Positions 34,659 to 52,878 are shown, counted from the stretch's first letter. The stretch: DNA of 64,000 nt from an uncultured delta proteobacterium (GCA_963755125.1 CAVWIP010000014.1:65681-129680); one strand, 5' to 3'. Numbers and translations: made by a program. The notes: a model not told the origin generated them from the sequence alone.

Positions 34659-36215
34659 CTAGACGATCCCGATCTTACCTGGACGCTCGGGCGTGGAGGC
34701 TGGGCGGGTGCGCGTGCGTGCCCATTCGCGCAGACGCGCGATGTCCTCGCGCATGGTCACGGCCAAGGGCATGGTCTCGCTGAGCGCGGCAACCAGGTGT
34801 TGCTGTTGCAGTTCCACGCCCTCGGCAAAGGCCGCGTACAGCCCGCTCACCACCACCTGCTCGATCTCGGCGCCGCTGAAGTGCTCGGCCCGCCGGGCCA
34901 GCTCTTCGACATTGAAATTGTCAGGGTTGCGACCGAAACGCTGCAGGTGAATGGTGAAGATCTGGGCGCGCTCGCCGGCGGTGGGCAGATCGATGAAGAA
35001 GATCTCGTCGAAGCGGCCCTTGCGCAGCAGTTCCGCCGGCAGGCTGTCGATGCGGTTGGCGGTGGCCACCACGAACACCGGCGCGGTCTTCTCCTGCAAC
35101 CAGGTGAGAAAGGTGCCGAAGACGCGCGCGGTGACGCCGCTGTCGCTGGCCCCGGACGACCCGATTCCGGCCAGGCTCTTTTCCAGCTCGTCGACCCACA
35201 GCACGGCCGGGGCGATGCTCTCGGCGATGCGCATGGCCTTGCGCATGTTCTCCTCGGACGAGCCCACCAGGCCGCTGAAGATGCGCCCCATGTCCAGGCG
35301 GAGCAACGGCAGATGCCACTGCGACGCTACCGCCTTGGCGGTCAGGCTTTTGCCGCAGCCTTGCACCCCGAGCAGCAGCAGGCCCTTGGGCGCGGGCAAC
35401 CCGAACTGGCGCGCGCGCTCGGTGAAGGCGGCGGTGCGCTGATCCAGCCAGGCCTTCAGGTTCTGCAGGCCGCCGATGCTGGCGAAGCTCTCGGCGGTTG
35501 CGTAGTACTCCAGCAGGCCGCTCTTGCGGATGAGCTGGCGTTTTTCCGTGAGCACCAACTGGATGTCAGCCGCGTCCAGGCGCTGGTCCTTGGCGATGGC
35601 CTTGGCAAAGGCATTCTCGGCCTCGGACAGCGTCAGTCCCAAGGCAGCCTTGAGCAGGGGCTCGACTTCCTCGTTGCGCAGGTCGATGACGGCCTTCTTG
35701 CCCTCGCGTACCACAGCCACGATCTCGCGCAATAGCTTGAGCAGATCCTCGATGGCGGGCAGGGGCACGTCCAGCACCGAGATTTCCTTTTCCAGTTCGA
35801 TCGGGATGTTGAGCACCGGCGAGACCAGCACCATGGTCGTGAACGTGCTCTTCAGGCTGCGGGCCAGCTCGCGCGTGCGCCGGATCACCGCTGCATCGTT
35901 CAGGTAGGGATGGAAGTCCTTGAACACGACCAGCGCTGGCTCGGTCAACTTCTCCACGGCCGCGAGCGCGCCGCCCGGGTCCGTGGGCCCGTCGGCCTTG
36001 CTCGCGGTCCTGCCATTGTCCATGCGGCAGAGGCCTTGCGTGGCGGACCAGGTGAAAAGCGCCTTGCCGTGAGATTCGGCCAGGGTCGCGAGCACGACGT
36101 CAACGCGTTGCTCTTCCCAGGTCACCAGATAGATGAGTGGGTAGCGGGCGCGAATGAGGACGTCCAGCTCGTCGACGAAAGCGGACAGGGAAGGGCTGGT
36201 CGGCGAATCGGGCAT
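34659..36215 (-). CDS. Ycf46-like AAA+ ATPase (single C-terminal AAA module, about 250-aa N-terminal domain)
   Basis: Walker A is [13 protein letters not shown] and Walker B is [10 protein letters not shown]. The blocks [48 protein letters not shown] and FSGAEIEQ closely parallel cyanobacterial/plastid Ycf46. Confidence 0.8.
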
Positions 36216-36364
36216 GTCTCGCTATTATGCTCCGGTCTGGCGGCGCCAAGAAGAAGGCTCTGCCGCGGGAGGCCCGTCCGTCTTTCCCTGGCGCGCAGGG
36301 TCACACGATCCCATGACTCAAGCCGGGTGCCGGAACAGACGAGATTCCCCTTTGAAAGTCGAAG

Positions 36365-36393
36365 TCTGCGGGCGCGGATGCCGAGCCCGCAGA
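36365..36393. promoter_or_regulatory. 9-bp perfect inverted repeat (TCTGCGGGC-N11-GCCCGCAGA) in the divergent AAA+/cheY intergenic region
   Basis: Read directly from the sequence. It ends 67 nt upstream of the cheY GTG (36461, SD GGGAGG). It could be an operator or a 5'-UTR hairpin. Confidence 0.25.
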
Positions 36394-36460
36394 GAGTCCC
36401 CATGGCACGAGAAGGAAGCCCCAACGAAACAAGGGAGCCGAACTCCCAAGGGAGGAACGC

Positions 36461-36850
36461 GTGAACGCGGTCAAGAACAGAAAAGTTCTCGTTGTCGAGG
36501 ACTCCCGGCTCATCCACAAAATGTACGAAGTCATGCTACGGCCAACCACCTTGGTGTCCGCCTACGATGGGCGCGATGGGCTGGACAAGCTCAGCCAGAG
36601 CCCTGACGTGGATCTCATCATCCTGGATATCAACATGCCGAAGATGACCGGGCTGGAGTTTCTGGCGCAGGTGAAGTCCACCCCGGCCCTGGCCCAGATT
36701 CCCGTGATCATCGTCTCCACCGAGGGCAAGGAGGAGGATGTCGCGCGCGGCCTGCAGAACGGAGCCGCGGCTTATCTCAGGAAACCGTTTCAGCGCGAGG
36801 ATCTCCTCAAGTTGGTCAACCGGCTCGAGTCCAAGCAACCTGCGGCATGA
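36461..36850 (+). CDS. cheY: CheY-like single-domain response regulator
   Basis: VLVVEDS, phospho-acceptor context DLIILDINMPKMTG, IIVSTEG and YLRKPF. GTG start with a GGGAGG SD. Confidence 0.85.
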   Translation: MNAVKNRKVLVVEDSRLIHKMYEVMLRPTTLVSAYDGRDGLDKLSQSPDVDLIILDINMPKMTGLEFLAQVKSTPALAQIPVIIVSTEGKEEDVARGLQNGAAAYLRKPFQREDLLKLVNRLESKQPAA

Positions 36851-37632
36851 GCGACGGCAGCAACATGACTGACCCAATTCTTCCCGCAGATGTGCCCGCC
36901 GACGAGGGCGCTCTGGCCCAGGGAGGGCGAGATGCAATGGCCACCTTGCAGCGGGCGCAGCAACTCGTGCGCGATGCGCAGGCGGCCATCGAGGAGGCGA
37001 GCCGAGTGGTGGGCCTGGGCAACGGGGCAGGGCCGTCGGACGGGGTAGAGGCGCGCCTGGTCGCCGCGGAGAACGAGCGCGCGGAGCTGACCGGTCGCCT
37101 GGCCGATGTGGAGCACCAGGTGGGCCGCCTGATGACCCTGTACGTGGCCACCTATCAACTTCATGCCACGCTCGACCCGGTCGAGGTGCAGACGACCATC
37201 GCCGAGATCGCACTCAACCTGATCGGCGCCGAGCAGTTCGTGCTGCTGCTCATCGACGATGAGGATCAGAGCTACGAAATACGGCTCAGGCAAGGCGAGC
37301 CCACCACGCCCTGGGCGCAGGCCGAACGCTACGCAGGCGGCGATTTTCTGGTGGACGCGGCGCTGGCCGACGGCGGGCTGCGATTCGGTCCCACCGCGCA
37401 ATCGTCGGCCCTGGCGGTGGTGCCCTTGCGCGTGCAGGACGTGACCGTCGGGGCGCTGGTCATCTTCAAGCTGCTGGCGCACAAGCCGGCCTTCGTGAAG
37501 GAAGACCACGATCTGCTCGATCTGCTGGGGGCTCATGCCGCATCTGCGGTCTTCGCCTCCCGGGTTTACTCCAAGACGGCGCGCAAGCTGCGCACGCTCG
37601 AGAGCCTGATCCGCTTGGTCAACAAAGGATGA
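36847..37632 (+). CDS. Coiled-coil plus GAF-domain protein
   Basis: ATGA overlap with cheY. The N-terminal part is coiled-coil-like (…AENERAELTGRLADVEHQVGRLMTLY…). The GAF-like core is EIALNLIGAEQFVLLLIDDE…AVVPLRVQDVTVGALVIFKLL…DLLDLLGAHAA. Confidence 0.6.
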   Translation: MSDGSNMTDPILPADVPADEGALAQGGRDAMATLQRAQQLVRDAQAAIEEASRVVGLGNGAGPSDGVEARLVAAENERAELTGRLADVEHQVGRLMTLYVATYQLHATLDPVEVQTTIAEIALNLIGAEQFVLLLIDDEDQSYEIRLRQGEPTTPWAQAERYAGGDFLVDAALADGGLRFGPTAQSSALAVVPLRVQDVTVGALVIFKLLAHKPAFVKEDHDLLDLLGAHAASAVFASRVYSKTARKLRTLESLIRLVNKG

Positions 37633-37671
37633 CGTGATCGGGACGACCTGGCATAACCTGGGGCCGCGCGC

Positions 37672-39288
37672 ATGAGCTTCCAGGGTCGCATCGAGGATGT
37701 CGCCATCGCGGACGTGATGCAGCTCATCCGTCTGGGCGGGCATTCGGGCACTTTGTCGATTCACTCCGCCGAAGACGAGGCGCTCATCGGGTTCGAACGC
37801 GGTCGCCTGGTCAGCGCCTGGACCCCGCGCAGGTTGCGCCTGGGCGAGATGCTGGTTGCGGCCGGTGCCATCGGCGAGGCCACCTTGCAGCGGGCGCTGG
37901 AGACGCAAGAGGTGGAACGACCCCGGCGCACCATCGGGCAGATTCTGGTCCGCCAGGCTGCCACCACGCCCGAGGTCATCCGGCAGGTCGTCGGGCAAGA
38001 GATCGAGCGCGTGGTCAAGGAGGTGCTGGCCTGGCCCACCGGCACTTTCGAATTCGCGCTCGACGATCTGACGCCCATGGTGGAGGTGTCGCGCTTCTCC
38101 GGCGCGCCCAAGGTCGACCTAGACACGCAGCAGGTCCTGCTGGAGGTTCTGCAGGCGATGGAGGAGGAGTCGACCCGCGCTGCCTGCCAGCCGCCCGTTC
38201 CGATCGAGGTCTTGCCGGAAGGGTCGCAGCCGCTCGAGGAATTCGTGCAGGTGCTGACCAAGGGCAACCGCAAGCGGCCCGAGGGCGAAGTGACGTCGGT
38301 GCCCGAGCCCGCGGCCCCCGATAGCGGGATCACCACCAAAAGCGAAGTGCCCGATCGGCCGCGCTTTCAGCTGGTCTCTCCCGACGCAGACCTGCTGGCG
38401 CAGATCAATCACCTCCTGGCCGAGACCGGCGACCGCATGTCAGTGGTAGGTTTGCGCGATGCCGGGGCGTCGTTGCTGGGCGAGGCGCCGCCCATCGTGG
38501 TGGTGGACCTGCGCTACCAGTCACGGGCGGTAGAAACGCTCACCGCGCTCTGCCGGGCGCGACCCCGGGCCTCGGTGGTCGCGCTCTTCGTGGGGCGCGC
38601 CCCTTTGTGCGACATCTACCATGCGGGCGTGGTGTCCATCACCTCGGCCGGACCCGAAACCGTGGTCGCCTGTGTGCGCAGTGTGGCGCGCCAGCGCAAG
38701 TACCTGTCCAACGAAAACGCCATCGCCGAGGGTGTACGCTCCAGCTTCGCGCGCTTGCGACGGATCATCGCCGATCTGCGCTCCGGGCTTCTCGCCACCT
38801 CGGTGTCGCTCAATCTGCTCAACGTGGTGGCCGAGTCGCTCGACCGCGGCGTGCTGCTGGTGCCTGACGGCGAGAACTTGGTGGGCTTGGGCGCCTTCGG
38901 GCAAACCGCGCAAGGCGAGGAATTGGTGGCCAAGACGCAGAACCTGGCCTTTCCCGTGGGCGAGAGTGGCGTCTTCTGCGACTGTCTCAAGGACAGCCAG
39001 ACCCGCCGCCTCAACTACGACAGCGCAGTATTGCCGCAGGCTTTCCGCGACGTGGTCGACCGTCCTGCGTCGGGCGAGATCGCGGTCTTGCCTGTGCCCG
39101 GCAGCGAGCGCGTGATCGCCATCATCTACCTCGATAACGGTGCTCGCGATCGGCCGGTGGGCGACATCGAGATCTTCGAGTTGGCTGCGTTCCAACTCGG
39201 CTTGGCGCTGGAGAACGAGTTCTTGCGGCGCTCGGCCCCCGAGCGCAAGACGGGCGGACCCGTTATCAAGATGCGCAACATGGGATAG
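37672..39288 (+). CDS. Multidomain protein: DUF4388 (PATAN) N-terminus, tandem MshEN/T2SSE_N-like motif, pseudo-receiver-like segment, C-terminal GAF-like domain
   Basis: FQGRIEDVAIADVMQLIRLGGHSGTLSI fits DUF4388. RLGEMLVAAGAIGEATLQRALETQ plus TIGQILVRQAATTPEVIRQVVGQ fit the MshEN repeat motif. PPIVVVDLRY is receiver-like. The C-terminal …VIAIIYLDNGARDRPVGDIEIFELAAFQLGLALEN is GAF-like. Confidence 0.65.
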   Translation: MSFQGRIEDVAIADVMQLIRLGGHSGTLSIHSAEDEALIGFERGRLVSAWTPRRLRLGEMLVAAGAIGEATLQRALETQEVERPRRTIGQILVRQAATTPEVIRQVVGQEIERVVKEVLAWPTGTFEFALDDLTPMVEVSRFSGAPKVDLDTQQVLLEVLQAMEEESTRAACQPPVPIEVLPEGSQPLEEFVQVLTKGNRKRPEGEVTSVPEPAAPDSGITTKSEVPDRPRFQLVSPDADLLAQINHLLAETGDRMSVVGLRDAGASLLGEAPPIVVVDLRYQSRAVETLTALCRARPRASVVALFVGRAPLCDIYHAGVVSITSAGPETVVACVRSVARQRKYLSNENAIAEGVRSSFARLRRIIADLRSGLLATSVSLNLLNVVAESLDRGVLLVPDGENLVGLGAFGQTAQGEELVAKTQNLAFPVGESGVFCDCLKDSQTRRLNYDSAVLPQAFRDVVDRPASGEIAVLPVPGSERVIAIIYLDNGARDRPVGDIEIFELAAFQLGLALENEFLRRSAPERKTGGPVIKMRNMG

Positions 39289-39292
39289 CGCC

Positions 39293-41068
39293 GTGGAGGA
39301 GCTGTTCGCATCCCTCATCAAGGACTTCGTCGAGGAGACGGGGCCGCTGGCACGCGAGGTGGCGACCCTGGTTTTGCGACTAGAGGAAGCGCGCGCCAAC
39401 GGCGAGGAGGTGGAGGAGTTGCTGCGCGCAATGAAGAGCGCGCTGCACACCATCAAGGGCAATGCGGCCATGATGGGCCTGCCGGTCATCGCATCGGTGG
39501 CTCATGCGTTGGAGGACTATTGCTTGCTCGTCAGTCAGAAGGCCGAGAGTGAGCCATCAGGCCAGGCACAGATTTTGGTGGACGGGACCGATTTGCTCAT
39601 TCGCTCCATTCAGGGTTCTGTGCAGGGCGACGCCGAGCAAGCGTCGGTCGCGGCTTTCCTCGATCGCGTGGCTCGGGGAGTGGCGGCAGCGGGCGAGACG
39701 GTGCGTGCGCCGACACCGCTTGCGCGACCGCGCGTGCGGGCGCCGGCCGTGGCGGCCCAGGTGCCCGAGGCGGGCCCGCAAGCGGAGAAGTCGGCCGCGT
39801 CCGGCGCAGCCGTCGATCAGGATGGGGAAGGCAACGCGGTTCGCATCGCCGATCACGAAGTGGACGGGCTGCTCGACCTGACGGCCGAGGCCATCATCAG
39901 TCACGCCGAGCTGGTGCGCTTTGCCGGTCGGCTGGCGCGCGGGCACGTGCAGCGCAGCGACGCGGCCTTGCTCGAGCAAGTGCTGATCGCGCTGGGTCGG
40001 GCCACGGCCGAGATGCGCCACGACCTTCTGCGCGTGCGGCTGGCGCCCATCTCCTCTATGTTTCGGCGCTACGTTCGCTATGTGCGCGATCTGGCGCGCG
40101 AGCGCGGGCAGGCCATCCAGCTCGTCATCGAAGGTGGCGAGGTCGCCGTGGATCGCGCCATCATCAGCCGCCTGCACGAGCCCCTGGTGCACATGGTGCG
40201 CAACTCGGTGGCGCACGGGATCGAGAGCGCCGCGGAACGGGCTGCCGCGGGCAAGCCGGCGCGGGCCCAGATCCTGCTGGGTGCGCGGCTGGCCGAGGGA
40301 CGCGCGCGCATCGTGGTGGCCGACGACGGCCGGGGCCTCGACATGGCCGCGATCGCGGCCAAGGCCCGCGCCTTCGGGCTGGATCCCGAGCACATGCCGG
40401 AAAGCGAATTGCGGCGCCTGATCTTTCAGCCCGGCTTTTCCACCGCCACCGAGGTCTCTACCCTGGCCGGCCGGGGCGTGGGACTGGAAGTGGTGGCCAA
40501 CGTGGTGCAGAGCCTGGGCGGCAGCATCGACGTGCGCAGCGTGGCCGGGCAGGGGACGGTTTTTCTCATCGATTTGCCGGTGACCGCATCGCTGGTCAAG
40601 GCCTTGATCTTCGGAGTCGACAGCGAGACATTCGCCGTGCCGGCCAGCTTCGTGGTCGACAGCATCGAGGTGCGGGAGGCATCGATGCTCGAGATCAACC
40701 GCGTGCTGCTCTGTCCCTGGCGTGGCGATTTCTTGCGTGTTCTCGACGCTGGACGCCTGCTGGGCTGTGCCGGGTTGGTGCAGGACTGGACGCGCCCCTA
40801 TGGCATCGTGGTCGAGGCAGCCGCCAAACGCTGTGCCTTGATGGTCGACTGGCTGGTGGGTGTGCAAGAGATCGTGGTGAAGCCGCTGGACGAGACCCTG
40901 CGCACCTCGCGCGTGATCTCGGGCCTGACCATCCTGGGTCAGGGGCGCGTGGTGCCCATCCTGGATTGCAGCGAGGTGGTCAAGCGCGCGGCGGGTCCGG
41001 CCGCGGGCTTGCCCCCCAGAACTTCGTCGGGCGAGGATCCACACAGGAGCAGCAGCTATGGCATCTGA
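39293..41068 (+). CDS. cheA: Chemotaxis histidine kinase CheA (P1-P3-P4-P5; no obvious P2, no receiver)
   Basis: HPt is ALHTIKGNAAMMG. Kinase boxes are N box HMVRNSVAHGIE, G1 DDGRGLD, F box IFQPGFST and G2 GRGVGLEVV, with a C-terminal CheW-like domain. I chose GTG 39293, just after the upstream stop; ORF 39140 overlaps the previous gene. Confidence 0.9.
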   Translation: MEELFASLIKDFVEETGPLAREVATLVLRLEEARANGEEVEELLRAMKSALHTIKGNAAMMGLPVIASVAHALEDYCLLVSQKAESEPSGQAQILVDGTDLLIRSIQGSVQGDAEQASVAAFLDRVARGVAAAGETVRAPTPLARPRVRAPAVAAQVPEAGPQAEKSAASGAAVDQDGEGNAVRIADHEVDGLLDLTAEAIISHAELVRFAGRLARGHVQRSDAALLEQVLIALGRATAEMRHDLLRVRLAPISSMFRRYVRYVRDLARERGQAIQLVIEGGEVAVDRAIISRLHEPLVHMVRNSVAHGIESAAERAAAGKPARAQILLGARLAEGRARIVVADDGRGLDMAAIAAKARAFGLDPEHMPESELRRLIFQPGFSTATEVSTLAGRGVGLEVVANVVQSLGGSIDVRSVAGQGTVFLIDLPVTASLVKALIFGVDSETFAVPASFVVDSIEVREASMLEINRVLLCPWRGDFLRVLDAGRLLGCAGLVQDWTRPYGIVVEAAAKRCALMVDWLVGVQEIVVKPLDETLRTSRVISGLTILGQGRVVPILDCSEVVKRAAGPAAGLPPRTSSGEDPHRSSSYGI

Positions 41069-41654
41069 GCAACGCCCCGCCGCGCCCCCTGCATCGGCTG
41101 CCCCAACATCCGCGCCGGCCCGCGACAGTCTGCTGGCCTTTGCCGATTCGGTTTTGGCCCGCCCCGCCGCGCCAGCCGCTGCGGCCGAGGTGCAGCCCTA
41201 CGTGACCTTCTTCCTGCGCCGTGAGGAATTCGGCCTTCCCATCTTGCGCAGTCGCGAGATCGTGCGCGTGAGTGAGATCACGCGCATCCCCGAGGCGCCC
41301 CCGCACGTGTGCGGTGTGCTCAATCTGCGGGGCCGGGTGGTACCTATCGTCGAGATTCGAACGCGTCTGGGGCTGGACGCGGCGCCCCTGACACCGCAGT
41401 CACGCGTGATCATGGTCGAGGCGCATGATCGCCTCTTCGGGTTGCTGGTCGATCGCGTGTCCCGCATCGCCAAAATTCCCGTCGCCGCCATCAAGCCTGC
41501 GCCGGCCGAGGCACTCTCCGCCAACACGGACTACGTCACCGGCATCGCCCAGATGGGCGCGGAGCTGATCATCATCCTCGATGTCGACAAGGTTCTCCTG
41601 CTCAACCCGACTGCGCCTCCGCCGACCGGCGCAAATTCGGAGCCGCGCGGATGA
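41058..41654 (+). CDS. cheW: CheW coupling protein
   Basis: YVTFFLRREEFGLPILRSREIVRVSEITRIPEAPPHVCGVLNLRGRVVPIV is the classic CheW core. An AGGAG SD is present, and the gene overlaps the cheA 3' end by 11 nt. Confidence 0.85.
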   Translation: MASEQRPAAPPASAAPTSAPARDSLLAFADSVLARPAAPAAAAEVQPYVTFFLRREEFGLPILRSREIVRVSEITRIPEAPPHVCGVLNLRGRVVPIVEIRTRLGLDAAPLTPQSRVIMVEAHDRLFGLLVDRVSRIAKIPVAAIKPAPAEALSANTDYVTGIAQMGAELIIILDVDKVLLLNPTAPPPTGANSEPRG

Positions 41655-43627
41655 CGGTGGAGGCCCTGTCTGATGTTCAGGAACGCCTGGCGGCTTTGCA
41701 AGCGGCGGTGGCGGGTGCGGAGCGTGACCAGGCCATCGTGGCCGGCCTGAAGGATGCATCCCCGCTGGTGCGGCAGAACGCCGTCGCGCTGGCCGCGCGC
41801 TATCTGGCGCCCGAGCTGCTGGCCCGGTTTCTCGCCGACGACGAGGACGCGACTCTGCGCAACGGGGCTCAGGCGGCGCTGGAGCGGCAAGGACCGCACG
41901 CGATTCCGCACCTGCTCGCGCTCACCCGGGATGCCAACCACGAGTTGGCATTCTTTGCGGTGCAGATTCTGTCCACCATCAATGATGTTTCGGCCAAGCA
42001 GGCGTTGTTGCCGCTGCTCGATCACCCGGACCGCAACCTCGTCCAGGCGGCCGTGGAAGCGCTCGGCCACATGCGCGCAGTGGAAGCCGTCCCCGCCTTG
42101 ATTCGCCTGCTGGCCAGCGATTCCTGGTTGCAGTTCGCGGCGGCCTCTGCTTTGGGCAGAATTGGGGATGCACGCGCGGTCGGCCCGCTGCTAGAACGCC
42201 TTGACGATGAGCTGCTCGCCGAGATGGTGATCGAGGCGCTGGGCCGAATTGGCGATGCGGATGGGCTTGAGCCCTTGCTCGATCGGCTGGTGTCAAGCGA
42301 TCGCCTGCCGCTGCGCGATCAGCTCCTGCTGGCCGTGGCCGCCATTCTGGAAGACAACCCCGGCCTGCGGGGTGTCCGTGCGCGCGCGCGCCTGTGGCGG
42401 CCGGACGCTCGGGCTGGTTTGCGCGACTATCTGATTGGCTTGCTGGCCATGCACGATGCGATGCTGGCGCGGTCGGTGGGCGTGCTGGTGGTGCGCGCCG
42501 AGATGTGGGATCTGATGCCGGCGCTGTTGCAGCGCAATCCGGATCCCGGCGAGGAATCCTGGCTGGAAGGCATGCTTCGTCGCTGCCGGCGTCGTGCTCA
42601 GGCCGAGTTGCTGCCCTTGCTCCAGCATACCGACCCGCGGGTGCGGGCGGGCACGTTGTTGCAGGTGCCGTTCGACGCTGGGGCCACGTCCGCCGTGGCC
42701 GGCTGCTTGCAGGATCAGGATCCGGAGGTGCGTGCGGCGGCCTGCCTTGCGCTGGGGCGACTGCGCGAGCCGTCGGCTGCTGCGGCTTTGGCTCATGCCC
42801 TGCGATCGAGCGATGCGTGCGAGCACACGGCCGCGGCGCGCGCCCTGGCCCAACTGCCGGGCGAGAGCTTGGCCGTGCTGGCGCCCGAGCTGGAACCAGA
42901 AGCTGCCGATGAGCAACGGCAGCGTGCGCTCACGGTGCTGGAACAGGCGCGCAGCACGATGCACGAGGAGCGGGTGCGCGCGCTGGTGCACGACGGCCCG
43001 CCGGTGGTAAGGCAGGCGGCCCTGCGCGTGCTGGGGCGGTATCCCGGCCGCGCGACTGACGAATGGATCATGGCCGGTCTGCGCGACGACGAGTTGGCGG
43101 TGCGCATCGCCACGGTCGAGATCCTGGTGCGCCGGCGCTGTCGCAAGGCCATCCCGGCCCTGATCGAGCTCTTGCCAGGCGCCGATCCGCTGCGCTACCA
43201 TCTGGTGCGCGCCCTGGGACGGCTGCATGCCAAGGTGGCGGCATCCCGACTGCAGGCCCTGTATACCGGGGCGCCGCTGCACGAGCGCATCGAGATTGTG
43301 GTGGCTCTCAACCAGATTGCGCCGGCCGGGGTGCTGCCGTTCTTGCGTGGGGTTCTGGACGATCCCGATGTGGAACTGCGGCGGGTCGCCTCCGACGGGT
43401 TCGTGCGGGCGGCGGGCCCGCGCGAGCTGGAAGCAATGGTGGCACTGGCCCGGGACGCCGACTGGGTGGTACGCAATCACGCGGCCTGGGGCCTGGGCCG
43501 CCTGGGCTTGCCGGCCGCCCAGCCGCACCTGGCCGCCCTGGCCCGCGACGTGGAACCCCTGGTGGCGCGCACCGCACGTGCGGCGCTCGGCCAGCTGGCT
43601 GCCGACAACCCGGATGTGAAGGCATGA
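41651..43627 (+). CDS. 658-aa HEAT-repeat (PBS-lyase-type) protein
   Basis: ATGA overlap with cheW. About 31-aa periodic units of type D..VR..AA.ALG.. run along the whole length (DPEVRAAACLALGRL, DWVVRNHAAWGLGRLG, etc.). Confidence 0.75.
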   Translation: MTVEALSDVQERLAALQAAVAGAERDQAIVAGLKDASPLVRQNAVALAARYLAPELLARFLADDEDATLRNGAQAALERQGPHAIPHLLALTRDANHELAFFAVQILSTINDVSAKQALLPLLDHPDRNLVQAAVEALGHMRAVEAVPALIRLLASDSWLQFAAASALGRIGDARAVGPLLERLDDELLAEMVIEALGRIGDADGLEPLLDRLVSSDRLPLRDQLLLAVAAILEDNPGLRGVRARARLWRPDARAGLRDYLIGLLAMHDAMLARSVGVLVVRAEMWDLMPALLQRNPDPGEESWLEGMLRRCRRRAQAELLPLLQHTDPRVRAGTLLQVPFDAGATSAVAGCLQDQDPEVRAAACLALGRLREPSAAAALAHALRSSDACEHTAAARALAQLPGESLAVLAPELEPEAADEQRQRALTVLEQARSTMHEERVRALVHDGPPVVRQAALRVLGRYPGRATDEWIMAGLRDDELAVRIATVEILVRRRCRKAIPALIELLPGADPLRYHLVRALGRLHAKVAASRLQALYTGAPLHERIEIVVALNQIAPAGVLPFLRGVLDDPDVELRRVASDGFVRAAGPRELEAMVALARDADWVVRNHAAWGLGRLGLPAAQPHLAALARDVEPLVARTARAALGQLAADNPDVKA

Positions 43628-44463
43628 ACGGGCCCTTGGCAGAGGAAGAATGGAAGCTCCTGCTCGATCTGGTGAGCCGGGAGTTCGGCCTGGTGTTTCA
43701 AGAGTCGCGTCGCCGTCACCTGGAAGGCCGGCTGACGCCGCGGTTGCAGGCTCTCGGCCTGGAATCGTTTGGCGCCTATTATCGCTATCTGGCGCGCCAC
43801 CCGGATCGCGGCGCCGAGTTGCACGTGCTCGCGCGCATCCTGACCAACAACGAGACCTACTTCTTTCGCGAGGCCCATCATTTCGATCTGCTGGTGCAGC
43901 ACGTGGTTCCGCAATTGTCGCTGCCCGCGCGGCCGGGACCGCTGCGCGTGCTGTCGGCAGGTTGCTCGTCCGGAGACGAGGCCTACTCCATCGTGATCGC
44001 GCTGCAAGGGGCGCGCTTGGATCGTGAGGGCTTGTCCTGGCACATCGATGCCTGCGATCTGAACCCGGCGCGCATCGTGCAGGCGCGTGAAGGCATCTAC
44101 GAGGCCGAGTCGTTGCGGGCCTGCGACGAGTTGGGGCGCCACGCGCACTTCAGCGTGCAGGGCGACCGCTTTCGCCTGCGTCCCGAGCACCGCAAGGGAA
44201 CCAGTTTCTTCGAGGCCAACTTGGCCGTGGCGGGGCTCGATCTGCCGGGCGCGCCTTACCACGTGATCTTCTGCCGCAACGTCCTCATCTATTTTTCCGA
44301 GGAGGCGTTCCACCGCGCGATTTCCCACTTTCACCGCGCTCTGGCTGCGGGCGGGTATCTCTTCTTGGGTCACGCCGAATCGCTGATCGGGAGGCGCAGC
44401 GATTTCAAACCGGTGCGTCTGTGCGACTCGATCGTCTATCGCAAGCAGGACACGGGGACATGA
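43624..44463 (+). CDS. cheR: Chemotaxis methyltransferase CheR
   Basis: ATGA overlap with the HEAT gene. ETYFFRE, SAM-binding LRVLSAGCSSGDEAYS, IFCRNVLIYF. The in-frame upstream part of ORF 43063 is rejected because it overlaps the HEAT gene. Confidence 0.9.
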   Translation: MNGPLAEEEWKLLLDLVSREFGLVFQESRRRHLEGRLTPRLQALGLESFGAYYRYLARHPDRGAELHVLARILTNNETYFFREAHHFDLLVQHVVPQLSLPARPGPLRVLSAGCSSGDEAYSIVIALQGARLDREGLSWHIDACDLNPARIVQAREGIYEAESLRACDELGRHAHFSVQGDRFRLRPEHRKGTSFFEANLAVAGLDLPGAPYHVIFCRNVLIYFSEEAFHRAISHFHRALAAGGYLFLGHAESLIGRRSDFKPVRLCDSIVYRKQDTGT

Positions 44464-45506
44464 CCAGAGTTTTCGTTGTCGACGACTCGCCTTTCATCCG
44501 CAAAGCTGTGGCGCGTGTGTTCTCGGCGCGAGATGACATGCAGGTGGTGGGGACGGCCCAGAGCGGGGAAGAGGCCCTGGAGCGGCTTGCTGCGGCCCGG
44601 CCGAATGTGGTGACGTTGGACGTGGAGATGCCGGGCATGGGCGGCCTGGCGACCCTGCGGGAGATCCAGCGCCGCTACCCGGGCCTGCCCGTGATCATGC
44701 TGTCGGTGTACACGAAAGAGGGAGCGGAGACGACACTCGACGCCATCAACGCCGGAGCGGTGGACTTCATCGACAAGAGTCGCCTCAATGTCATGGACTT
44801 CGACCGCCTGTCGCGCGAATTGCTGGCCAAGATTGAAGTGTGGAAGCAGGCGCCCCATGGCCATTCCTGGGAGCGCGCGGTCTCGCCACTGCCGGCTCAT
44901 CCCGCGGCCCCGGGCGCCGTCCCGGTGGTGGACTGGTCGTCCTATGATTTGTGCGTGATCGGTGCTTCCACGGGTGGCCCGCCTGCCTTGCAACAGATCG
45001 TGAACCAGGTTCCCCAGGATTTCCCCCTGCCCATCGCCGTGGTCCAGCACATGCCGGTGGGGTTCACCCGTCCGTTCGCGGAGCGGCTGAACTGCCTGGG
45101 TCGGATCCGGGTGAAAGAAGCCGCGGATCACAACACCCTGCAGCCTGGTCAGATGTTGCTGGCGCGAGCCGGAGCGCACCTTTTCATTGAGTCCGACCTG
45201 ACCGCTCATCTGTCGCTTGACCCCATAGATGCGGTTCACATCCCCAGCATCGACGTACTGATGGAGTCGGCCAGCCGCGCCCGTCCCGGACGTGTGGTGG
45301 GAATCTTGTTGACTGGCATGGGCGACGACGGGGCCGAGGGGATGCTGGCCATCCGTCGTTCGGGCGGCCTCACCGTTGCCGAGGCCGAATCTTCGTGCGT
45401 GGTGTACGGCATGCCCCGTGCGGCCCACAAACGCGGCGGGGTTTCCCACATGCTTTCCCTTCCCGAGATCTGTCAGCTCTTCGCAGCAAGGAGCGATGAC
45501 CCATGA
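44460..45506 (+). CDS. cheB: Chemotaxis methylesterase CheB (receiver + esterase)
   Basis: ATGA overlap with cheR. Receiver motifs are VFVVDDS and [13 protein letters not shown]. Esterase Ser/His/Asp contexts are GASTGGP, VVQHMP and LTGMGDDG. Confidence 0.9.
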
Positions 45507-47863
45507 GCAGCCAGAAAGACGCGCCCCAATCTGAAGAGGCCCTAGCCAAAGTCGCCAAGCCGGTAACCCTGCTTCGCCGTTTCCAAACCGTCCCGTTGCT
45601 GCGACACATGCGCCTGTGGCAGAAACTGCTGTGCATCGTGGTGGTGTTGCTGATTCCCACTCTGTTTCTGCTCAGGGACTTCGTCAGTCGTGCCAGCCAG
45701 GACATCGTGCGCACCCGCACCGAACTGTGCCTGGATGAACACTCGCGTCTGTTGCGCGTGATCCTGGACAACCTGACCGCCCTGCGCCTGGGCCGGGCCG
45801 AGTCCGAGGCGGCCGCGGCCGGCCTGGCGGCGAACGCGAGTGCGCAGGTCGAGAGCGCCCTGGCGCAACTCGATCGCGCAGAAACCTCGGGCTGCGGCCG
45901 TGCCGATCCGGGCATCGCGGGGCGCATGCGTCCGGTCCTGGCGGGGCTGCGCGCCGGTTGGACCCAACCACCCGGCGATGGTGTGCGCGCTGAGGAGATC
46001 GACCGGCGCATGCGCGAACAACTGCGCTTGGGCTATCGGCAGATCGCCACGCGTAGCAGTCCCGGCTCGGCCGCTGACCTCGATTCGGAACTGGTCAACG
46101 AGGCGACCCGCAGCACGCTGCCCGAGGCGGCGTGGAGGCTGGCAGATTTGGTGGTGCTGGGTGCCCAGATTGCGTCGGCCAACGACACGGCCATCGAAGC
46201 GCGGGCACAGCTCATCAACGCGGTGGAGAGTCTGGAGGCCAGCGCGCTCGATCTGCAGCGCGGGTTGCGCGCGCTGTCCGTCAACGAGGGCGGGGTCACT
46301 GGGGCGGGGGATTCGCTGGACGCAAGCGTGGGCGCCGTTGTGAAACGGTATGTGCAATCCCTGCGCGAGACCACTGCGGCGGCACGCGAGTTGAGCGCGC
46401 AGGGAAAGACGGCGGGGACACACGACACGGCCGCGCTGCACACCGCCCTGGCTATGAAAAAGTCGGCCAAGTCGGCCCTCGAATCACTCTTCGCCACCTA
46501 CGACGCGGCCTTGGCGTGGCAGGGAAGCCAACTGGGCGAGCGGGTGGCGCGCCTGGAAGGGCAGCGCTCGCGCACCGTCGCCTTCGTGATAGTGGCGTTG
46601 CTGCTGGCGGGCTTTCTGGTGTCGGTCATCGTACGCAGCATCACCACCCCACTGTCGGCGGCGGTGGAGTGCTCCAACCGCCTGGCTGCCCAGGACTTCA
46701 CAATCGAGATTGCGCCCAGCGAATCCAGTGATGAGGCGGGCCAGTTGCAGGCCTCCATGCGCCAGATGGCCAGCAGCCTGCGAGCCACCATCCGATCCAT
46801 CCTCGCCTCGTCGCGAATCGTGGCGGCTGCGTCCGAGAAGATCTCTAGCTCGGGCAGTCAGTTGGCGCGCGGGGCAGAAACCCAGTCGGCTGCCACCGAG
46901 GAAACATCCTCAAGCATGGCGCAGATCGCGGCGCAGATTCAGCAACTGGCCAAGACCGCGATGTCGCTTTCGGCCAGCGTGGAGCAGACCACCACGGCCT
47001 TTCAAAAGATGCACGAAACCCTCGAGCGCACGGCCAATCACGGACAGACTTTGCTGACTTCGTCACAAGATGCGAGCGCGCATCTGGCCGAACTGACCAG
47101 CAGCATCACCCAGGTCACCAGCCAGTCCCGCTCGGCCAATGAAATGTCGCAGTCGGCCCTGGGAGCGGTGAAGCTGGGCGGGGAGAAGCTGCAGCAGTCC
47201 ATCGGCGGGATCGGCGAGCGTGCGCAGGAGGTCAGCAAGATCGTGCGGCTCATCGAGGAAATCGCCGATCAAACCAACCTGCTGGCGCTCAACGCGGCCA
47301 TCGAGGCCGCCCGCGCGGGTGAGGCCGGACGTGGTTTCGCGGTGGTGGCCGACGAGGTGCGCCGGCTCGCCGAGCGCAGCGCGCAGGCCACGCAGGACAT
47401 CAGCGCCATCATCGAGCGCGTGCAGAAGGATGTCGGCTCGGCGGTGGTCTTGACCGACGAGGTTCTGGTGGGGATGATGGCGTCCATCGACAAGACCTCG
47501 TCGATCATAGAAGAGAGCGCAGTGACCACCGAGAGGCAGACCGAGTCCGCACGTCGGACGCTGAAGATGGCCGAGAACATGGCAAGCTTGGCCCAGCAGA
47601 TCGCGGTGGCCTCGCGCGAGAACGCAGGCAGCGCCGCCGAGATTGTCAAGGCATCGCACAACATGAACGAGCTGACCAACATCATGCTGGACGCCACCAT
47701 CGAGCAGAAGCGCGGGGGCGAGACCGTGGTCAAGGCGACCGATTCGATCGCGGAAGTGGCGCGACAAAATCTGCAAGTGGTGGAAGGCATCAACCTGGCC
47801 GTGCGTGAGTTGGTCGCCGAGGCGGAGACCCTGCGCAAGCGCGTGGAGGCGTTCACCGTCTGA
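45503..47863 (+). CDS. Methyl-accepting chemotaxis protein with about 300-aa periplasmic helical sensor, HAMP and MA domains
   Basis: ATGA overlap with cheB. Two TM segments are present ([16 protein letters not shown] and [19 protein letters not shown]), followed by HAMP. The invariant hairpin is [42 protein letters not shown]. Confidence 0.9.
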
Positions 47864-49803
47864 TGCAATCCCAAGCGTCCCCGCAGTCTTTGGGGGAGGC
47901 CCTGCTGAGCGCCCTGGGCGATACCGACCGCTCCCGCCGCGAAGAAGCCATTGCCCAGGCGGCCGTCGCGGCTGACCCGGACAGTCTGGTGGAGCTTCTG
48001 GGCAAGCACGACGATGCGGCCAGCCGCAACGCCGCTCTGGAGGCGCTCGCCCGCGGCGGCAGCCGCAGCCTGCCCGCGCTGGTGCGCGCCTTGCGCAGCA
48101 GCGACGAGGAGGTCGTGATGTTCGCGGCCATGGCCTTGGCGCAAACCCGCGGCCCAGGCGGCATCCCGCATCTGCTTCGACTCTTGCACCATCCCGATCT
48201 CAACGTCGCGCAAGCCGCCATCGACGCGCTGGGCAAGCTGCGCGCGGTTTCGGCGACCGGTCCGATCGAAAAGATGCTGACGGCCGATCCCTGGCTGCGC
48301 TTCGCCGCTGCCAACGCCCTGGGCGAGATCGGGAGCCCGAGCAGCGTGCCCGCCTTGCTGCGCGTGCTCCACGATCCGTCGCTGTCGGACTTGGCCATCG
48401 AGGCACTGGGAAAGATCGGCTCGGGGAACGCCGCGGTGGCGCTTGCGGAGATTGCCATCGAGCGGGTTGAAACCGAGCAATTCACGGTGTGCGTGCTCGC
48501 GTTGGGGCGTGCCCTCGGCCAGCAACTCGACCGAACCGCACTCGCGGCGAACCCGGTGTGGACGCGCCTGGCATCGCCGGAAGCGGCAGCCGTGCACGAG
48601 CGTCTGCGGCGTATCCTGGGCACGGGCGATGCCGAAGCCGGCGGGAGCGAGTTGCAGGAGGTGAAGGAAGCGGCCATCGAGGTGATCCGGGGTGTGCCGC
48701 TCACATCACTTCTTTGTCTGCTGGTGGAAAGCGCGTGGGATGCAAGCTTGACCGAGGCACTGCTGGATGCGTTGGTTTTCGCGGGACCGGAGGTGCGGCC
48801 TTGCGTGCTGGCCGGGCTTGGTCACGGCGACACGCGGGTGCGCCGGCTGGCCTGTGTGGCAGCCGGGCACTTGAACATGACGGAGGCGGCGCCTGCCTTG
48901 TGCCGCCTGGCCGACGACGGGGCGCCAGAAGTGCGGGCCGACGCCTTGCGCGCGCTGGCGCGATTGCACGAGTACGATGCCTTGCCCATCATCCTCGGGC
49001 GCCTCTCCGATGTCAGCGGCGAGGTGCGCGCCGCAGCCCAGTGGGCGCTGGACTTCATGGACGCCGAGCAGGTGACGGCGGCCATCCTGGAAAACTCCGA
49101 GCTTGCCCGCCGCCACGCCGCCGAGATTCTGGCCGTGATGCAGGCCCATCCCGTGGCTGCGCAGCATGAGTTCATCGAGAATCGCCTGGCCGACCCGCGC
49201 GAGGAAGTTCGGCGAGCTGCGGTCGCGGCCTTGGCCGCAAGGGGCGGGGCCGAGGTCGTCGAGATACTGGAGCCGTTTCTGCGCGATCCCGCAGCAGCGG
49301 TTCGGCAGGAGGTGGTGCGGGGCTTGGGGCGCCAGCGATCGCAGCCTGCGCAGGCGTTGCTGTTGCAGCAGTACCAGCGCGATCCAGCAACGCGCAGGGA
49401 AGCCTTGCTGGCGCTCGGAAAGATTGGCGACTGTGTGGCGGCGCAAAGACTGACCGGGCTGCTGTCCGCGCAAACCTTGCCCGAGCGCCTGGCCATCATC
49501 GATACCTTGGGGACGCTGGCGGCCCCGTGCACGGAGCCCATCCTGATCGGGTTGCTGCGCGATCCCGAGTTCGAGGTTCGTTGTCGGGCGGCCGTCGCCC
49601 TGGGGCGATTCACAACCACAGGTGCAGCGACCCGTCTGGCGCTGGCCACGCGGGATGCGGACGCACGCGTGCGACTCGCGGCGCTTGAGGCGCTGGCTCC
49701 GGCGAAGAGCCATCCAGCAGTGGTGCAAGCCATCGAGCGTCTGTGCTTGGATCCCAGCCCCGCCATCGCCGCCTTGGCCCGGCAGTGGCTTGACAAGACG
49801 TAG
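47863..49803 (+). CDS. 646-aa HEAT-repeat (PBS-lyase-type) protein, second copy
   Basis: TGATG stop/start overlap with the MCP gene. It has the same D..VR..A..ALG.. periodicity (APEVRADALRALARL, SGEVRAAAQWAL, REEVRRAAVAALAARG, EFEVRCRAAVALGRF, DARVRLAALEALA). Confidence 0.75.
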   Translation: MQSQASPQSLGEALLSALGDTDRSRREEAIAQAAVAADPDSLVELLGKHDDAASRNAALEALARGGSRSLPALVRALRSSDEEVVMFAAMALAQTRGPGGIPHLLRLLHHPDLNVAQAAIDALGKLRAVSATGPIEKMLTADPWLRFAAANALGEIGSPSSVPALLRVLHDPSLSDLAIEALGKIGSGNAAVALAEIAIERVETEQFTVCVLALGRALGQQLDRTALAANPVWTRLASPEAAAVHERLRRILGTGDAEAGGSELQEVKEAAIEVIRGVPLTSLLCLLVESAWDASLTEALLDALVFAGPEVRPCVLAGLGHGDTRVRRLACVAAGHLNMTEAAPALCRLADDGAPEVRADALRALARLHEYDALPIILGRLSDVSGEVRAAAQWALDFMDAEQVTAAILENSELARRHAAEILAVMQAHPVAAQHEFIENRLADPREEVRRAAVAALAARGGAEVVEILEPFLRDPAAAVRQEVVRGLGRQRSQPAQALLLQQYQRDPATRREALLALGKIGDCVAAQRLTGLLSAQTLPERLAIIDTLGTLAAPCTEPILIGLLRDPEFEVRCRAAVALGRFTTTGAATRLALATRDADARVRLAALEALAPAKSHPAVVQAIERLCLDPSPAIAALARQWLDKT

Positions 49804-49923
49804 GGGGACTTGCCAGGTAAGTGCAGTTCTTCGCTTCGGTTGCTGTGCGCATTTTTTCATGACTGCGTCGTAACTCGGGTGCACAATCGGGCTCTGGGAT
49901 AGCGAGATTCGGGGGTCAAGCCC

Positions 49924-51003
49924 GTGCCGCAAGCGACATCACTTCCAAGTCAGGCGTTGCACAAGTCGAATGCCCCGCAAATCAGGCCAGAGGAGTTGAG
50001 CCAACTGGCCGGCCTCTTCGCGGCCAAGCTGAAGGCCGGCCTCTCGATCAGCCAGGCGCTGTATGCGCTGTCAGTCGATTCGAAGAAGCCGGTTCTGGTG
50101 GCGGCGTGCAAGGGCGTGAAGGCCAGCGTGGATGCCGGCCGGCCGCTGGGTGAAGCCATGCGCGCATACCCGGACGTGTTCGACGAGATCAGCGTGGCGG
50201 TGCTGGGCGCGGGCCAGAAGAGCAATCGCCTGCCGATCGAGCTGCAACGTTTGTCGGCTTATCTCGGCACCACAGCGAAGATTGCGCGCGGCCTGCGCAG
50301 CGCGACCACGCGGCCCATGCTCAGCCTTGGTGTCGGCCTGCTGGTCATCATGGCCGGCCTTGCGGGCGCGGCGCCTGCCCTCGAGCGATTCCTGGAGAGC
50401 CTGCCCGAGCGAGAATGGCCGGCCGCCAGCCATCTGGCCATCCACGTCTCGCATGCCTTGCGATGGATCCTGCCGGTGGTGCTGGCGGCGCTGGCTCTCG
50501 TGTATGGGGGTTTTCGCCTGCTTGTGCGCGGAGAAAAGCGTCTGCGTTGGCGGGATAGGATGCTCTTGGGGGCGCCGATTGTCGGGTCGTTGTGGCGGGC
50601 CAAGGCGGTGGCGCACTTTTGCCGCACCACCGGGCTGCTGGCCTCCGCCGGTATTCCGCTGCTGGAGGCGATGGAAAGCGCCGCGATGACCTCGGGCAAC
50701 TTGGCAGTGCGCGGGGCGGTGCTGCTAGTGGCTGACAAGCTGGGCAAGGGCCGCGACTTGCCCCCGTTGCTGGTCGAGGTTGGCCTGGTCCCGCGATCCG
50801 AGATGAACGCCATGCAAGCGGCCGAGCGGCGGGGAGCCCTGGGTGAAGTGCTCATGAAGCACGCTGAAGCCAGCGACGCCGATCTGTTGAGGAGGATCAA
50901 CCGGCTCAAGAACCTGGCGCAGTCGGCGACGGTCTTGCTGCTCGGTCTGCTGGTAGCCGCCGTGGTATTGGGGCTGGTCGGCGCCGCGCTGGCGGGCCGC
51001 TGA
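49924..51003 (+). CDS. Type II secretion / type IV pilus platform protein family (GspF/PilC-like), orphan
   Basis: Two T2SSF-type cytoplasmic repeats are present (…AGLSISQALYAL…VKASVDAGRPLGEAMRAYPDVFDEISVAVLGAGQKSNRLPIELQRLSAYL and …LASAGIPLLEAMESAA…VADKLGKGRDLPPLL…MQAAERRGALGEVL). Three TM segments have the GspF spacing. GTG start; 120-nt gap after the HEAT gene. Confidence 0.7.
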   Translation: MPQATSLPSQALHKSNAPQIRPEELSQLAGLFAAKLKAGLSISQALYALSVDSKKPVLVAACKGVKASVDAGRPLGEAMRAYPDVFDEISVAVLGAGQKSNRLPIELQRLSAYLGTTAKIARGLRSATTRPMLSLGVGLLVIMAGLAGAAPALERFLESLPEREWPAASHLAIHVSHALRWILPVVLAALALVYGGFRLLVRGEKRLRWRDRMLLGAPIVGSLWRAKAVAHFCRTTGLLASAGIPLLEAMESAAMTSGNLAVRGAVLLVADKLGKGRDLPPLLVEVGLVPRSEMNAMQAAERRGALGEVLMKHAEASDADLLRRINRLKNLAQSATVLLLGLLVAAVVLGLVGAALAGR

Positions 51004-51078
51004 GCACTGCCTGGACCTGGAGGCGTGCGGGATCAGCCCGCCTTGCACTGCTCGGGAACCTTTGCGTGCACGGCTCGG

Positions 51079-52692
<1,614 letters not shown>

Positions 52693-52878
52693 GATCCGTG
52701 GACCCCGGCGATCATGGTAGCACCGATGACGGCGCTGGGGGTAGCAGCGGACCGCCTTTCTTTCGGCCGACCCGTCGCCTGCTGGAGCGAGACGTGTCGT
52801 CTCACTGGCCTGTGCGACCAGTGCCCGGATTTGCGGCGACCGGCCCAGCCGTGAAAACCCAGGAACGCGGCAGAAGGG

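Follow-up and report, generated by a model that had tools for sequence, protein, structure and literature searches.

A myxobacterial chemosensory operon with GAF, PATAN and HEAT-repeat proteins, and a probably separate orphan GspF-like gene beside it

Myxobacteria contain many chemosensory systems, the outputs of which are mostly unknown. Two outputs known separately are relevant here. In Myxococcus xanthus, CheY7 targets the HEAT-repeat protein Cpc7, according to the account of Darnell et al. 2014 that is cited in PMC9040617. PATAN domains are the output of PatA-type regulators, and those of Synechocystis bind PilB1 and PilC's N-terminal domain; in M. xanthus, social motility requires the PATAN protein SgnC (bioRxiv 10.1101/2021.06.11.447907). 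The insert of the PATAN domain is related to the N-termini of GspE (Makarova et al. 2006, in the form cited in bioRxiv 10.1101/2021.06.11.447907). A 64,000-nucleotide stretch of DNA from an uncultured delta proteobacterium (GCA_963755125.1 CAVWIP010000014.1:65681-129680; hereafter the window) carries a chemosensory operon at 36461-49803 that unites the two, the HEAT protein of Che7 and the regulators by which cyanobacteria steer type IV pili (T4P), and that is followed by a gene of the T2SSF family. Literature searches found no description of its CheY-GAF-PATAN-HEAT set.

The region probably consists of two separate things, an accessory non-flagellar chemosensory operon and a separately controlled orphan T2SSF gene. 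The host lineage of the operon is uncultured peat and fen Myxococcota. The features are as follows, in coordinates of the window.

36216..36460, no strand: intergenic region shared by the divergent AAA ATPase gene and cheY, the presumed promoter region of the che operon
36461..36850, plus strand: cheY, 129 amino acids (aa); Pfam Response_reg, E=7e-25
36847..37632, plus strand: gene of a coiled-coil and GAF protein, 261 aa; Pfam GAF_2/GAF_3
37672..39288, plus strand: gene of a PATAN (DUF4388), REC-like (putative pseudo-receiver) and GAF protein, 538 aa; Pfam DUF4388, E=3e-23
37837..38001, plus strand: MshEN/GSPII-like four-helix insert (alpha-clip) in the PATAN domain, aa 56-110
39293..41068, plus strand: cheA, 591 aa; Pfam; start inferred from relatives
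41058..41654, plus strand: cheW, 198 aa; Pfam CheW, E=3e-36
41651..43627, plus strand: HEAT1, 658 aa, PBS-lyase-type HEAT repeats; Pfam HEAT_2 in 8 stretches
43624..44463, plus strand: cheR, 279 aa; Pfam CheR and CheR_N
44460..45506, plus strand: cheB, 348 aa, receiver and methylesterase; Pfam
45503..47863, plus strand: gene of a methyl-accepting chemotaxis protein (MCP), 786 aa; Pfam
47863..49803, plus strand: HEAT2, 646-aa HEAT-repeat protein; Pfam
49855..49923, plus strand: upstream element of the GspF-like gene, conserved among relatives
49924..51003, plus strand: GspF/PilC-like (T2SSF family) gene, 359 aa; Pfam T2SSF twice

The interval 36461-51003 contains eleven plus-strand open reading frames (ORFs), and Pfam domains agree with all of the labels above. 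Ten of these genes (36461-49803) are a real, tightly packed non-flagellar chemosensory operon. The cheY and GAF genes overlap by an ATGA at 36847 and the PATAN gene follows after 39 nucleotides (nt); cheA and cheW overlap by 11 nt; ATGA overlaps join cheW to HEAT1 (41651), HEAT1 to cheR (43624), cheR to cheB (44460) and cheB to the MCP gene (45503), which shares 1 nt with HEAT2 in a TGATG at 47863. The longest ORF of cheA opens at 39140, and its start is most likely the GTG at 39293, which lies 4 nt past the PATAN stop codon and is the start used by gene callers in relatives. A preliminary description of this stretch had reported a near-gapless ten-gene chain from cheY to the second HEAT gene, with a GspF/PilC-like gene on the same strand 120 nt beyond the end of HEAT2 at 49803, and every junction and coordinate that it gave is present in the sequence. 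Start/stop overlaps of 4 nt are ordinary for high-GC operons, and the G+C content of the window is 59-70% in 2-kb windows; the chaining is thus the mark of an operon and nothing unusual. A divergent AAA ATPase gene (34659-36215, minus strand) flanks the region upstream, and a convergent Ser/Thr kinase gene (51079-52692, minus strand) flanks it downstream. The ten proteins align end to end with their orthologues, and therefore none of the ten genes is a pseudogene.

The operon encodes CheA, CheW, an MCP signalling domain, a phospho-acceptor CheY, and both CheR and CheB. Pfam domains for all core members thus bear out the earlier claim of a complete chemosensory core accompanied by non-flagellar accessory proteins. 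CheY has the canonical residues, as read from the sequence (acidic pair E13/D14, D56, S86/T87 and K108), and is 72-91% identical in relatives and 57% identical in the cultured Anaeromyxobacter paludicola. CheA has Hpt, dimerisation, HATPase and CheW-like domains in Pfam and no receiver domain; its H-kinase_dim match is weak (E=0.0018, under the Pfam cut-off). The MCP has two transmembrane segments, a periplasmic helical domain of about 300 aa, a HAMP domain and a signalling domain with its hairpin tip at E607 (from hydropathy and the tip motif). In an alignment to Tsr and TM1143, its arms, each of about 179 aa to either side of the tip, exceed those of the 44H receptor TM1143. The MCPs of M. 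xanthus all belong to the 40H or 44H class (PMC3945109), and the arm length hints that none of that species' eight systems is orthologous to the window system.

Conservation was assessed in about 70 related loci (numbered with the prefix L), all from Myxococcota save a few distant HEAT-protein loci from other phyla. The PATAN protein is highly conserved, in at least 235 clusters and mostly at 60% identity or more. Among 26 PATAN-seeded GTDB loci, those that include the 5' flank keep cheY-GAF-PATAN to identities as low as 45%, the GAF gene standing invariably between the other two where the trio is conserved; this does not hold for L019 and L035, which are deletion variants, for L032, which has no cheY match, or for three PATAN paralogues that stand alone, at 36-41% identity. 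In the seeded loci the trio is usually followed by cheA-cheW and an MCP gene, and cheR-cheB are present in the 80%-identity clade. Losses relative to the window follow whole-gene boundaries, and the remaining reading frames stay coupled. Exactly HEAT1 (41662-43638) is missing in L014 and exactly HEAT2 in L017, HEAT2 being absent from L007 and L018 as well; the end of cheW into cheB is missing in L007-9 and L018, with a 54-codon cheB scar kept in L007-9 and a C-terminal cheB scar also in L023; and everything from cheA onward is missing in L003, L004, L020 and L021, with short N-terminal cheA scars (23-27 codons) in L003, L004 and L020. Judged by these gene comparisons, cheR-cheB and both HEAT genes are gained and lost as whole-gene blocks, and the GAF, PATAN and HEAT genes are conserved partners of the core, not passengers. 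The linkage of accessory genes to the che core that had been proposed at first holds for these three and fails for the GspF-like gene, which is adjacent in one sublineage only.

Large deletions within the equivalent of 36458-49854 were seen in closely related fen and peat metagenome-assembled genomes (MAGs; L003, L004/L035, L007-9, L018, L020, L021 and L023). The scars also include the 3'-terminal 49 codons of the GAF gene; in L004, moreover, the PATAN gene is frameshifted at codon 168 and the AAA ATPase gene has lost an internal segment.

HEAT1 and HEAT2 match the Pfam HEAT_2/HEAT_PBS and NCBIfam NblB/CpcE-like models, and HEAT2 is a paralogue of HEAT1 (31% identity). The HEAT1 family is broad, with at least 716 matches; among close relatives HEAT1 is found in the window and L017. 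HEAT2 orthologues with 50-54% identity stand directly after the MCP gene in 9 complete clusters. A relative with 53% HEAT1 identity has the order cheW-HEAT-cheR-cheB-MCP-HEAT as in the window, followed by STAS and PAS-GGDEF genes and no GspF-like gene, and a HEAT-cheR-cheB-MCP block occurs alone on another contig (JGI 3300056388). A Gemmatimonadales genome has cheY-cheY-cheA-cheW-MCP-HEAT-cheR-cheB, in which the frames overlap by 1-4 nt or sit 2 nt apart. On contig L072 the set cheY-GAF-PATAN-HEAT occurs without any che core in the 10 kb around it. A. paludicola encodes CheY, a 766-aa GAF+PATAN+GAF fusion, a HEAT protein (49% identical to HEAT1) and a che core that is 36-39% identical; the fusion is 59% identical to the window GAF protein and 41% identical to the PATAN/REC-like/GAF protein. 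Because the two are fused in A. paludicola, the GAF and PATAN proteins would be expected to work together, and their recurrent adjacency suggests that a HEAT protein belongs with them.

The PATAN protein has a PATAN domain (37672-38187), a REC-like domain (38365-38706) and a GAF domain (38800-39234), the last of which is weak in Pfam. An AlphaFold2 (AF2) model built from an alignment of 42 sequences (mean predicted local distance difference test score (pLDDT) 68) consists of the PATAN domain (residues 1-172, with a four-helix insert at 57-119), a disordered linker, a receiver-like alpha/beta domain (232-345) and the GAF domain (377-521). Foldseek matched this model to receiver domains (HupR, CheY and the N-domains of TadZ/CpaE) and to GAF domains. 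Pfam at E<=10 matched neither T2SSE_N nor Response_reg in the protein, and hhalign gave no significant match (probability 0.07) between the receiver-like region and the window CheY. In the receiver-like domain D279 is invariant, F306 stands in place of Thr and the Lys is missing; this domain is best called a pseudo-receiver. As to the traits of PatA-type regulators, the N-terminal PATAN domain with its alpha-helical insert is present and a functional receiver is not.

The insert resembles the MshEN domain, which is defined by two tandem RLGxxhhxxGhhxxxxLxxxLxxQ motifs of 24 residues each with a 5-residue spacer. Motif I of the window protein (residues 56-79, RLGEMLVAAGAIGEATLQRALETQ) is an exact fit, and R56, G58, L61, L72, L76 and Q79 are invariant in 42 homologues. 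The family profile matched the N-domains of PilF, PilB and MshE in the PDB (best match PilF, E=6.9e-8), and NCBIfam NF053729, an MshE-related cyclic di-GMP (c-di-GMP) motif, scored 37.9 bits against a cut-off of 38. The motif like that of the GspE/MshE N-terminus, which the preliminary description had noticed in this DUF4388 protein, is thus confirmed by the exact motif I and the PilF/PilB/MshE profile matches, and the insert may provide a c-di-GMP input. In M. xanthus, MshEN motifs are abundant and co-occur with receiver domains (PMC5013675).

The GspF-like protein has two T2SSF domains and three transmembrane segments, and aligns to profile positions 53-389, without the first ~50 residues of canonical GspF. 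In NCBIfam it stays far below the equivalog level (158 bits vs 424 for GspF and 136 bits vs 700 for PilC, a Myxococcus-type model). Its AF2 model (mean pLDDT 75) matched M. xanthus PilC in Foldseek (E=1e-8) and the cytoplasmic domain of EpsF with a target-normalised TM-score of 0.85-0.90 and a root-mean-square deviation of 1.3-1.4 A. A word-indexed search with the protein returned about 53 clusters at 51-100% identity, below which came canonical GspF at 25-28%; among 1.84 billion representatives searched exhaustively with HMMER, only about four clusters reached 47% identity or more, followed by canonical proteins of ~400 aa at 25-32%. By sequence comparison, the protein represents a narrow, lineage-specific T2SSF subfamily of one Myxococcota lineage. 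Pfam scans of about 40 ORFs of the 64-kb window found no ATPase, pilin or secretin of a type II secretion system (T2SS) or T4P, in agreement with the preliminary description, and no cognate ATPase, pilin or secretin genes were found in the 10-kb flanks of the relatives listed with Pfam families.

What lies 5' of the GspF-like gene varies: the window has HEAT2 there, L001/L017, L007-9 and L018 have the MCP gene, L003 and L004 have the PATAN gene, and L010-L013 and L002 have asd (in L002 by collinearity with L012); in a 53%-identity outgroup it is a HAD hydrolase gene, with asd and a GGDEF gene further upstream. The constant downstream neighbour is a convergent four-gene operon (window 55330-61428, minus strand). 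In all of these contexts about 70 nt before the start codon are conserved, comprising TTTCATGAC, about 15 nt, GGTGCACAAT and a conserved leader. The element motif occurs exactly once per locus in 20 of the records with the GspF-like gene, and the window has one match where chance would give 0. It includes a -35-like ATGACT (49859-49864), a 17-nt spacer and a -10-like CACAAT (49882-49887); a consensus promoter scan of the gap between HEAT2 and the GspF-like gene found no match, the -35/-10-like pair being too weak for the scanner. The element is conserved above codon third positions, and in the outgroup (74% vs 66% and 48%) it beats first and second positions too. An Rfam scan of 36000-51300 at E<=1 found no match, and the element is therefore no known riboswitch or leader. 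An ATG within TTTCATGAC was considered as an upstream start of the GspF-like gene and rejected, as it is out of frame and its mini-ORF is not conserved. DNA collinearity with relatives resumes at ~49841-49855 in most and at 49908 in L018; because it resumes within this gap, the 120 nt appear to be the GspF-like gene's own control region.

The phylogenetic distribution points the same way. In a neighbour-joining tree, the asd-GspF genomes fall in one clade and the che-adjacent genomes apart, and the outgroup has the asd-side arrangement; adjacency to the che genes is therefore consistent with one rearrangement. The data are likewise consistent with an ancestral position after asd and with a che adjacency derived by rearrangement in one sublineage only. 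Two relatives, the MAG fen_1123 and a 122-kb JGI contig, carry both loci on one contig, with 29-37 kb between the che cluster and the GspF-like gene. Of the GTDB species representatives, 9 MAGs yielded the GspF-like gene, and the PATAN/che cluster was found in those 9 and at least 13 more; no GspF-like gene was detected in the 13 or more further genomes by scans that used short peptide patterns, with which divergent orthologues could be missed. A single operon that includes the GspF-like gene is at odds with its own conserved upstream element and with a linkage confined to one sublineage. Most likely, as far as comparative sequence evidence goes, the gene is an independent transcription unit.

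The gene content, coupling, conservation and modular gain and loss of the operon are observed, and it appears to have been assembled from three recurring modules. Module A, the presumed output, would comprise CheY, the coiled-coil GAF protein and the PATAN/pseudo-receiver/GAF protein, with a ~650-aa HEAT protein as a frequent fourth member; module B would be the kinase module, CheA and CheW; and module C, for reception and adaptation, HEAT1, CheR, CheB, the transmembrane MCP and HEAT2. The MCP would sense a periplasmic signal and control CheA, which would lead to phosphorylation of CheY. Phosphorylated CheY (CheY~P) may act on the HEAT protein or proteins, by analogy with CheY7 and Cpc7, and/or on a GAF/PATAN complex. 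By analogy with PatA-type regulators, the PATAN domain may relay the signal to a T4P-type motor or to polarity machinery, the MshEN-like insert may add c-di-GMP to the signals integrated, and CheR and CheB would give adaptation in the lineages that retain them. Myxococcota are not known to have flagella, and a non-flagellar output is therefore expected anyway.

Three other explanations were weighed against a chemosensory operon with a separately controlled neighbour. The preliminary description had made the GspF/PilC-like platform the dedicated output of the pathway, that is, a co-transcribed eleventh gene controlled via the PATAN protein. The gene does lie 120 nt downstream on the same strand with no terminator-like structure between, its adjacency is kept across a sublineage diverged to 68-74% GspF identity, and PATAN domains of Synechocystis bind the N-terminal domain of PilC; yet it has its own promoter-like element everywhere, even after asd and the HAD gene, the asd-GspF context is ancestral, and the two loci are 29-37 kb apart in fen_1123 and the JGI contig. 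Complete clusters of the 60%-identity clade, of A. paludicola and of the two-HEAT relative have no adjacent GspF-like gene. In L003 an intact PATAN gene directly precedes the GspF-like gene after deletion of the che core; however, the PATAN gene retained in L004 is frameshifted, and an argument from retention is biased, the loci having been found with PATAN and GspF protein queries. The PATAN-GspF adjacency of L003 and L004 was accordingly rejected as a conserved pair, nested deletions in an operon like that of the window fitting better with the cheA and GAF scars and the L004 frameshift. All 9 genomes with the GspF-like gene also carry a PATAN gene, and even so a dedicated platform output is unlikely: the own element in every context, the ancestral asd position and the restriction of adjacency to one sublineage count against it. 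Slightly less credible still is the idea that CheY, GAF, PATAN (MshEN-like) and ~650-aa HEAT proteins form an undescribed four-protein module for the output of chemosensory systems in myxobacteria, one that joins CheY~P and c-di-GMP and, in the lineage of the window, acts on the adjacent lineage-specific, ATPase-less PilC-like protein. The tempting picture of a chemosensory pathway driving an orphan platform thus falls away, and the adjacency would reflect rearrangement and not a conserved functional link.

A Che7-like, purely HEAT-mediated non-motility output, in stress or development, with CheY~P binding HEAT1/HEAT2 and the GAF and PATAN proteins serving as input or modulatory sensors, is doubtful but has a real chance of being correct. 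PBS-lyase-type HEAT proteins occur in the che operon of the window and in many others, CheY7 targets Cpc7 in M. xanthus (as cited in PMC9040617), the sizes of CheR and CheB equal those of CheR7 and CheB7, and CheA lacks a receiver like CheA7. It is countered by cheY-GAF-PATAN, which is conserved more widely and strongly than either HEAT gene, by several complete clusters without any HEAT gene (L014, L015/L025 and L018), and by an MCP whose apparent length exceeds that of the M. xanthus 40H/44H receptors. That the locus is decaying and dispensable, its gene order being without mechanistic meaning, is very improbable: many independent deletions with scars and one frameshift are found in relatives (L003, L004, L007-9, L020, L021 and L023), but the ten genes of the window are intact, full length and still coupled, core proteins are 57-92% identical over a wide divergence, and it is whole modules that are lost, with the remaining frames coupled.

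The preferred reading, an accessory chemosensory operon with modular output beside an independent GspF-like gene, has observations that weigh against it too. About half of the close relatives lack cheA-MCP, which casts doubt on the weight of the kinase input. The receiver-like domain of the PATAN protein lacks the conserved Thr and Lys and is unseen by Pfam, and for this reason any path by which CheY~P would reach the PATAN protein is conjecture. Motif II of the insert is degenerate: it departs from even the relaxed motif at positions 1, 12 and 24, and its spacer has 7 residues. GSPII-C of PilF has the same spacing and a Pro starting motif II and yet binds c-di-GMP, whereas GSPII-A, with one degenerate motif, does not (PMC11731258); the window insert may thus bind it or not. 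A T4P output is proposed by analogy only. The gap between HEAT2 and the GspF-like gene contains no terminator by scan, and its RNA fold is no better than shuffled sequence (z=0.75), so that co-transcription by read-through may occur. The presence of a PATAN gene in 9/9 GTDB genomes with the GspF-like gene makes a functional link conceivable, and the binding of a PilC N-domain by PATAN domains in Synechocystis (bioRxiv 10.1101/2021.06.11.447907) tends in the same direction.

In the region 5' of cheY, a CTCAAG...GACGA element (36317-36346) has its CTCAAG and GACGA invariant in the 80%- and 60%-identity clades, in an alignment of 15 upstream regions. A consensus sigma-70 promoter scan of this region found no match on the relevant strand, and a sigma-54 reading of TGGCACGAGAAGGAAGC was rejected by eye, its GC element being 2 nt out of register. 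A hairpin, GGGAGCCGAACTCCC (36433-36455), lies immediately 5' of the cheY Shine-Dalgarno sequence AGGGAGG, with which its 3' arm could pair instead; it is conserved in relatives only in part. The divergent AAA ATPase gene encodes a CDC48/FtsH-like protein without a protease domain, 90-93% identical through the 80%-identity clade as compared with 72-88% for the che genes. In the 60%-identity clade it is absent, and a gene for a FAD-binding protein stands upstream instead.

Genes for c-di-GMP proteins adjoin related loci (L005/L006, JGI 3300075153, JGI 3300041967, JGI 3300056388, L072 and L071), including GGDEF 5' of the outgroup GspF-like gene, PAS-GGDEF 3' of the two-HEAT che cluster and EAL 5' of the L072 set; PilZ genes occur in the neighbourhood of both the A. 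paludicola cluster and the JGI 3300056388 block, the match at the latter being faint. Their recurrence beside relatives is suggestive only. A 3198-bp contig from SPRUCE peatland (L060; JBEKKG010000955.1), binned as 'Planctomycetota bacterium', is 100% identical to CheA 226-591, CheW and HEAT1 1-505, and is probably a mis-binned contig of the window's organism, which would place that organism in a peat bog.

Downstream, the convergent operon at 55330-61428 encodes a 657-aa protein, a 313-aa protein, a 635-aa HAMP-HisKA kinase and a 428-aa TIG-domain protein; the first two have no Pfam or NCBIfam match. It is separated from the GspF-like gene by ~4.3 kb (51004-55335) containing the Ser/Thr kinase and PEGA gene (51079-52692, minus strand), two ORFs and a TPR gene (54428-55333, minus strand). 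This segment is absent from L002, L003, L004, L007, L010 and L018, and present in part in L017; since those relatives lack it, it appears to be an insertion specific to the window's lineage. Other genes of the window (821-3424, 7055-8287, 17382-18488 and 20829-25977) encode GH95, GH123-like and GH15 glycoside hydrolases, a formylglycine-generating FGE-sulfatase protein and an rve_3 integrase/transposase, the last (17382-18488) in the window's lowest-GC 2-kb stretch (0.593).

The locus and its relatives show one recurrent set, CheY, GAF, PATAN and HEAT, and several described systems share parts of it. Like M. xanthus Che7, the window has a non-motility-type che operon of Myxococcota with a PBS-lyase-type HEAT protein, a CheA without receiver, a single-domain CheY, and CheR (279 aa) and CheB (348 aa) of the size of CheR7 and CheB7. 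Unlike Che7, it has two ~650-aa HEAT proteins together with GAF and PATAN proteins and lacks a desaturase gene; Mcp7 is a cytoplasmic 40H receptor, and the MCP of the window is a transmembrane protein and has longer arms. The likeness to Che7 is thus one of gene content, domain make-up and protein sizes, as far as these can be read from the genes.

The MshEN/GSPII receptors (Vibrio cholerae MshE and Thermus thermophilus PilF; PMC5013675, PMC11731258) share the tandem 24-residue helical motifs, but theirs lie at the N-terminus of an ATPase and that of the window lies inside a PATAN domain, with a deviant motif II and a spacer of 7 rather than 5. The GspF-like protein shares two T2SSF domains, three transmembrane segments and the fold of M. 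xanthus PilC and of the cytoplasmic domains of EpsF/OutF with GspF/PilC/EpsF platform proteins; it differs from the canonical members in being only 25-32% identical, in lacking the N-terminal ~50 residues and in having no ATPase, pilin or secretin gene nearby.

A counterpart in a cultured organism is at about 2.496-2.518 Mb of A. paludicola AP025592.1 (generic annotation), where cheY, GAF, PATAN-REC-like-GAF and HEAT are followed by CheA, MCP, CheR, CheB and CheW. There, in contrast to the window, GAF and PATAN are fused, HEAT comes right after PATAN, an extra CheY, a GAF protein and CheD are present, and there is neither a second HEAT gene nor a GspF-like gene. As A. paludicola is fully sequenced, its CheY-GAF-PATAN-HEAT set is a genetically testable lead. 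The cyanobacterial Tax/Pix systems (PixG/PixH, PixE; Han et al., bioRxiv 10.1101/2021.06.11.447907) share with the window a PATAN regulator and a CheY heading a cheA-cheW-MCP operon, and a PATAN domain with an alpha-helical insert related to the N-termini of GspE/PilB. In the window, however, the receiver-like domain is degenerate (Asp kept, Thr/Lys lost) and precedes a GAF domain, CheA lacks a receiver at its C-terminus, additional GAF and HEAT proteins are encoded, the host is myxobacterial and there is no photoreceptor MCP. By analogy, the window system may be regarded as a blend of Che7, with its HEAT target, and Tax, with its PATAN regulator and CheY placed before cheA.

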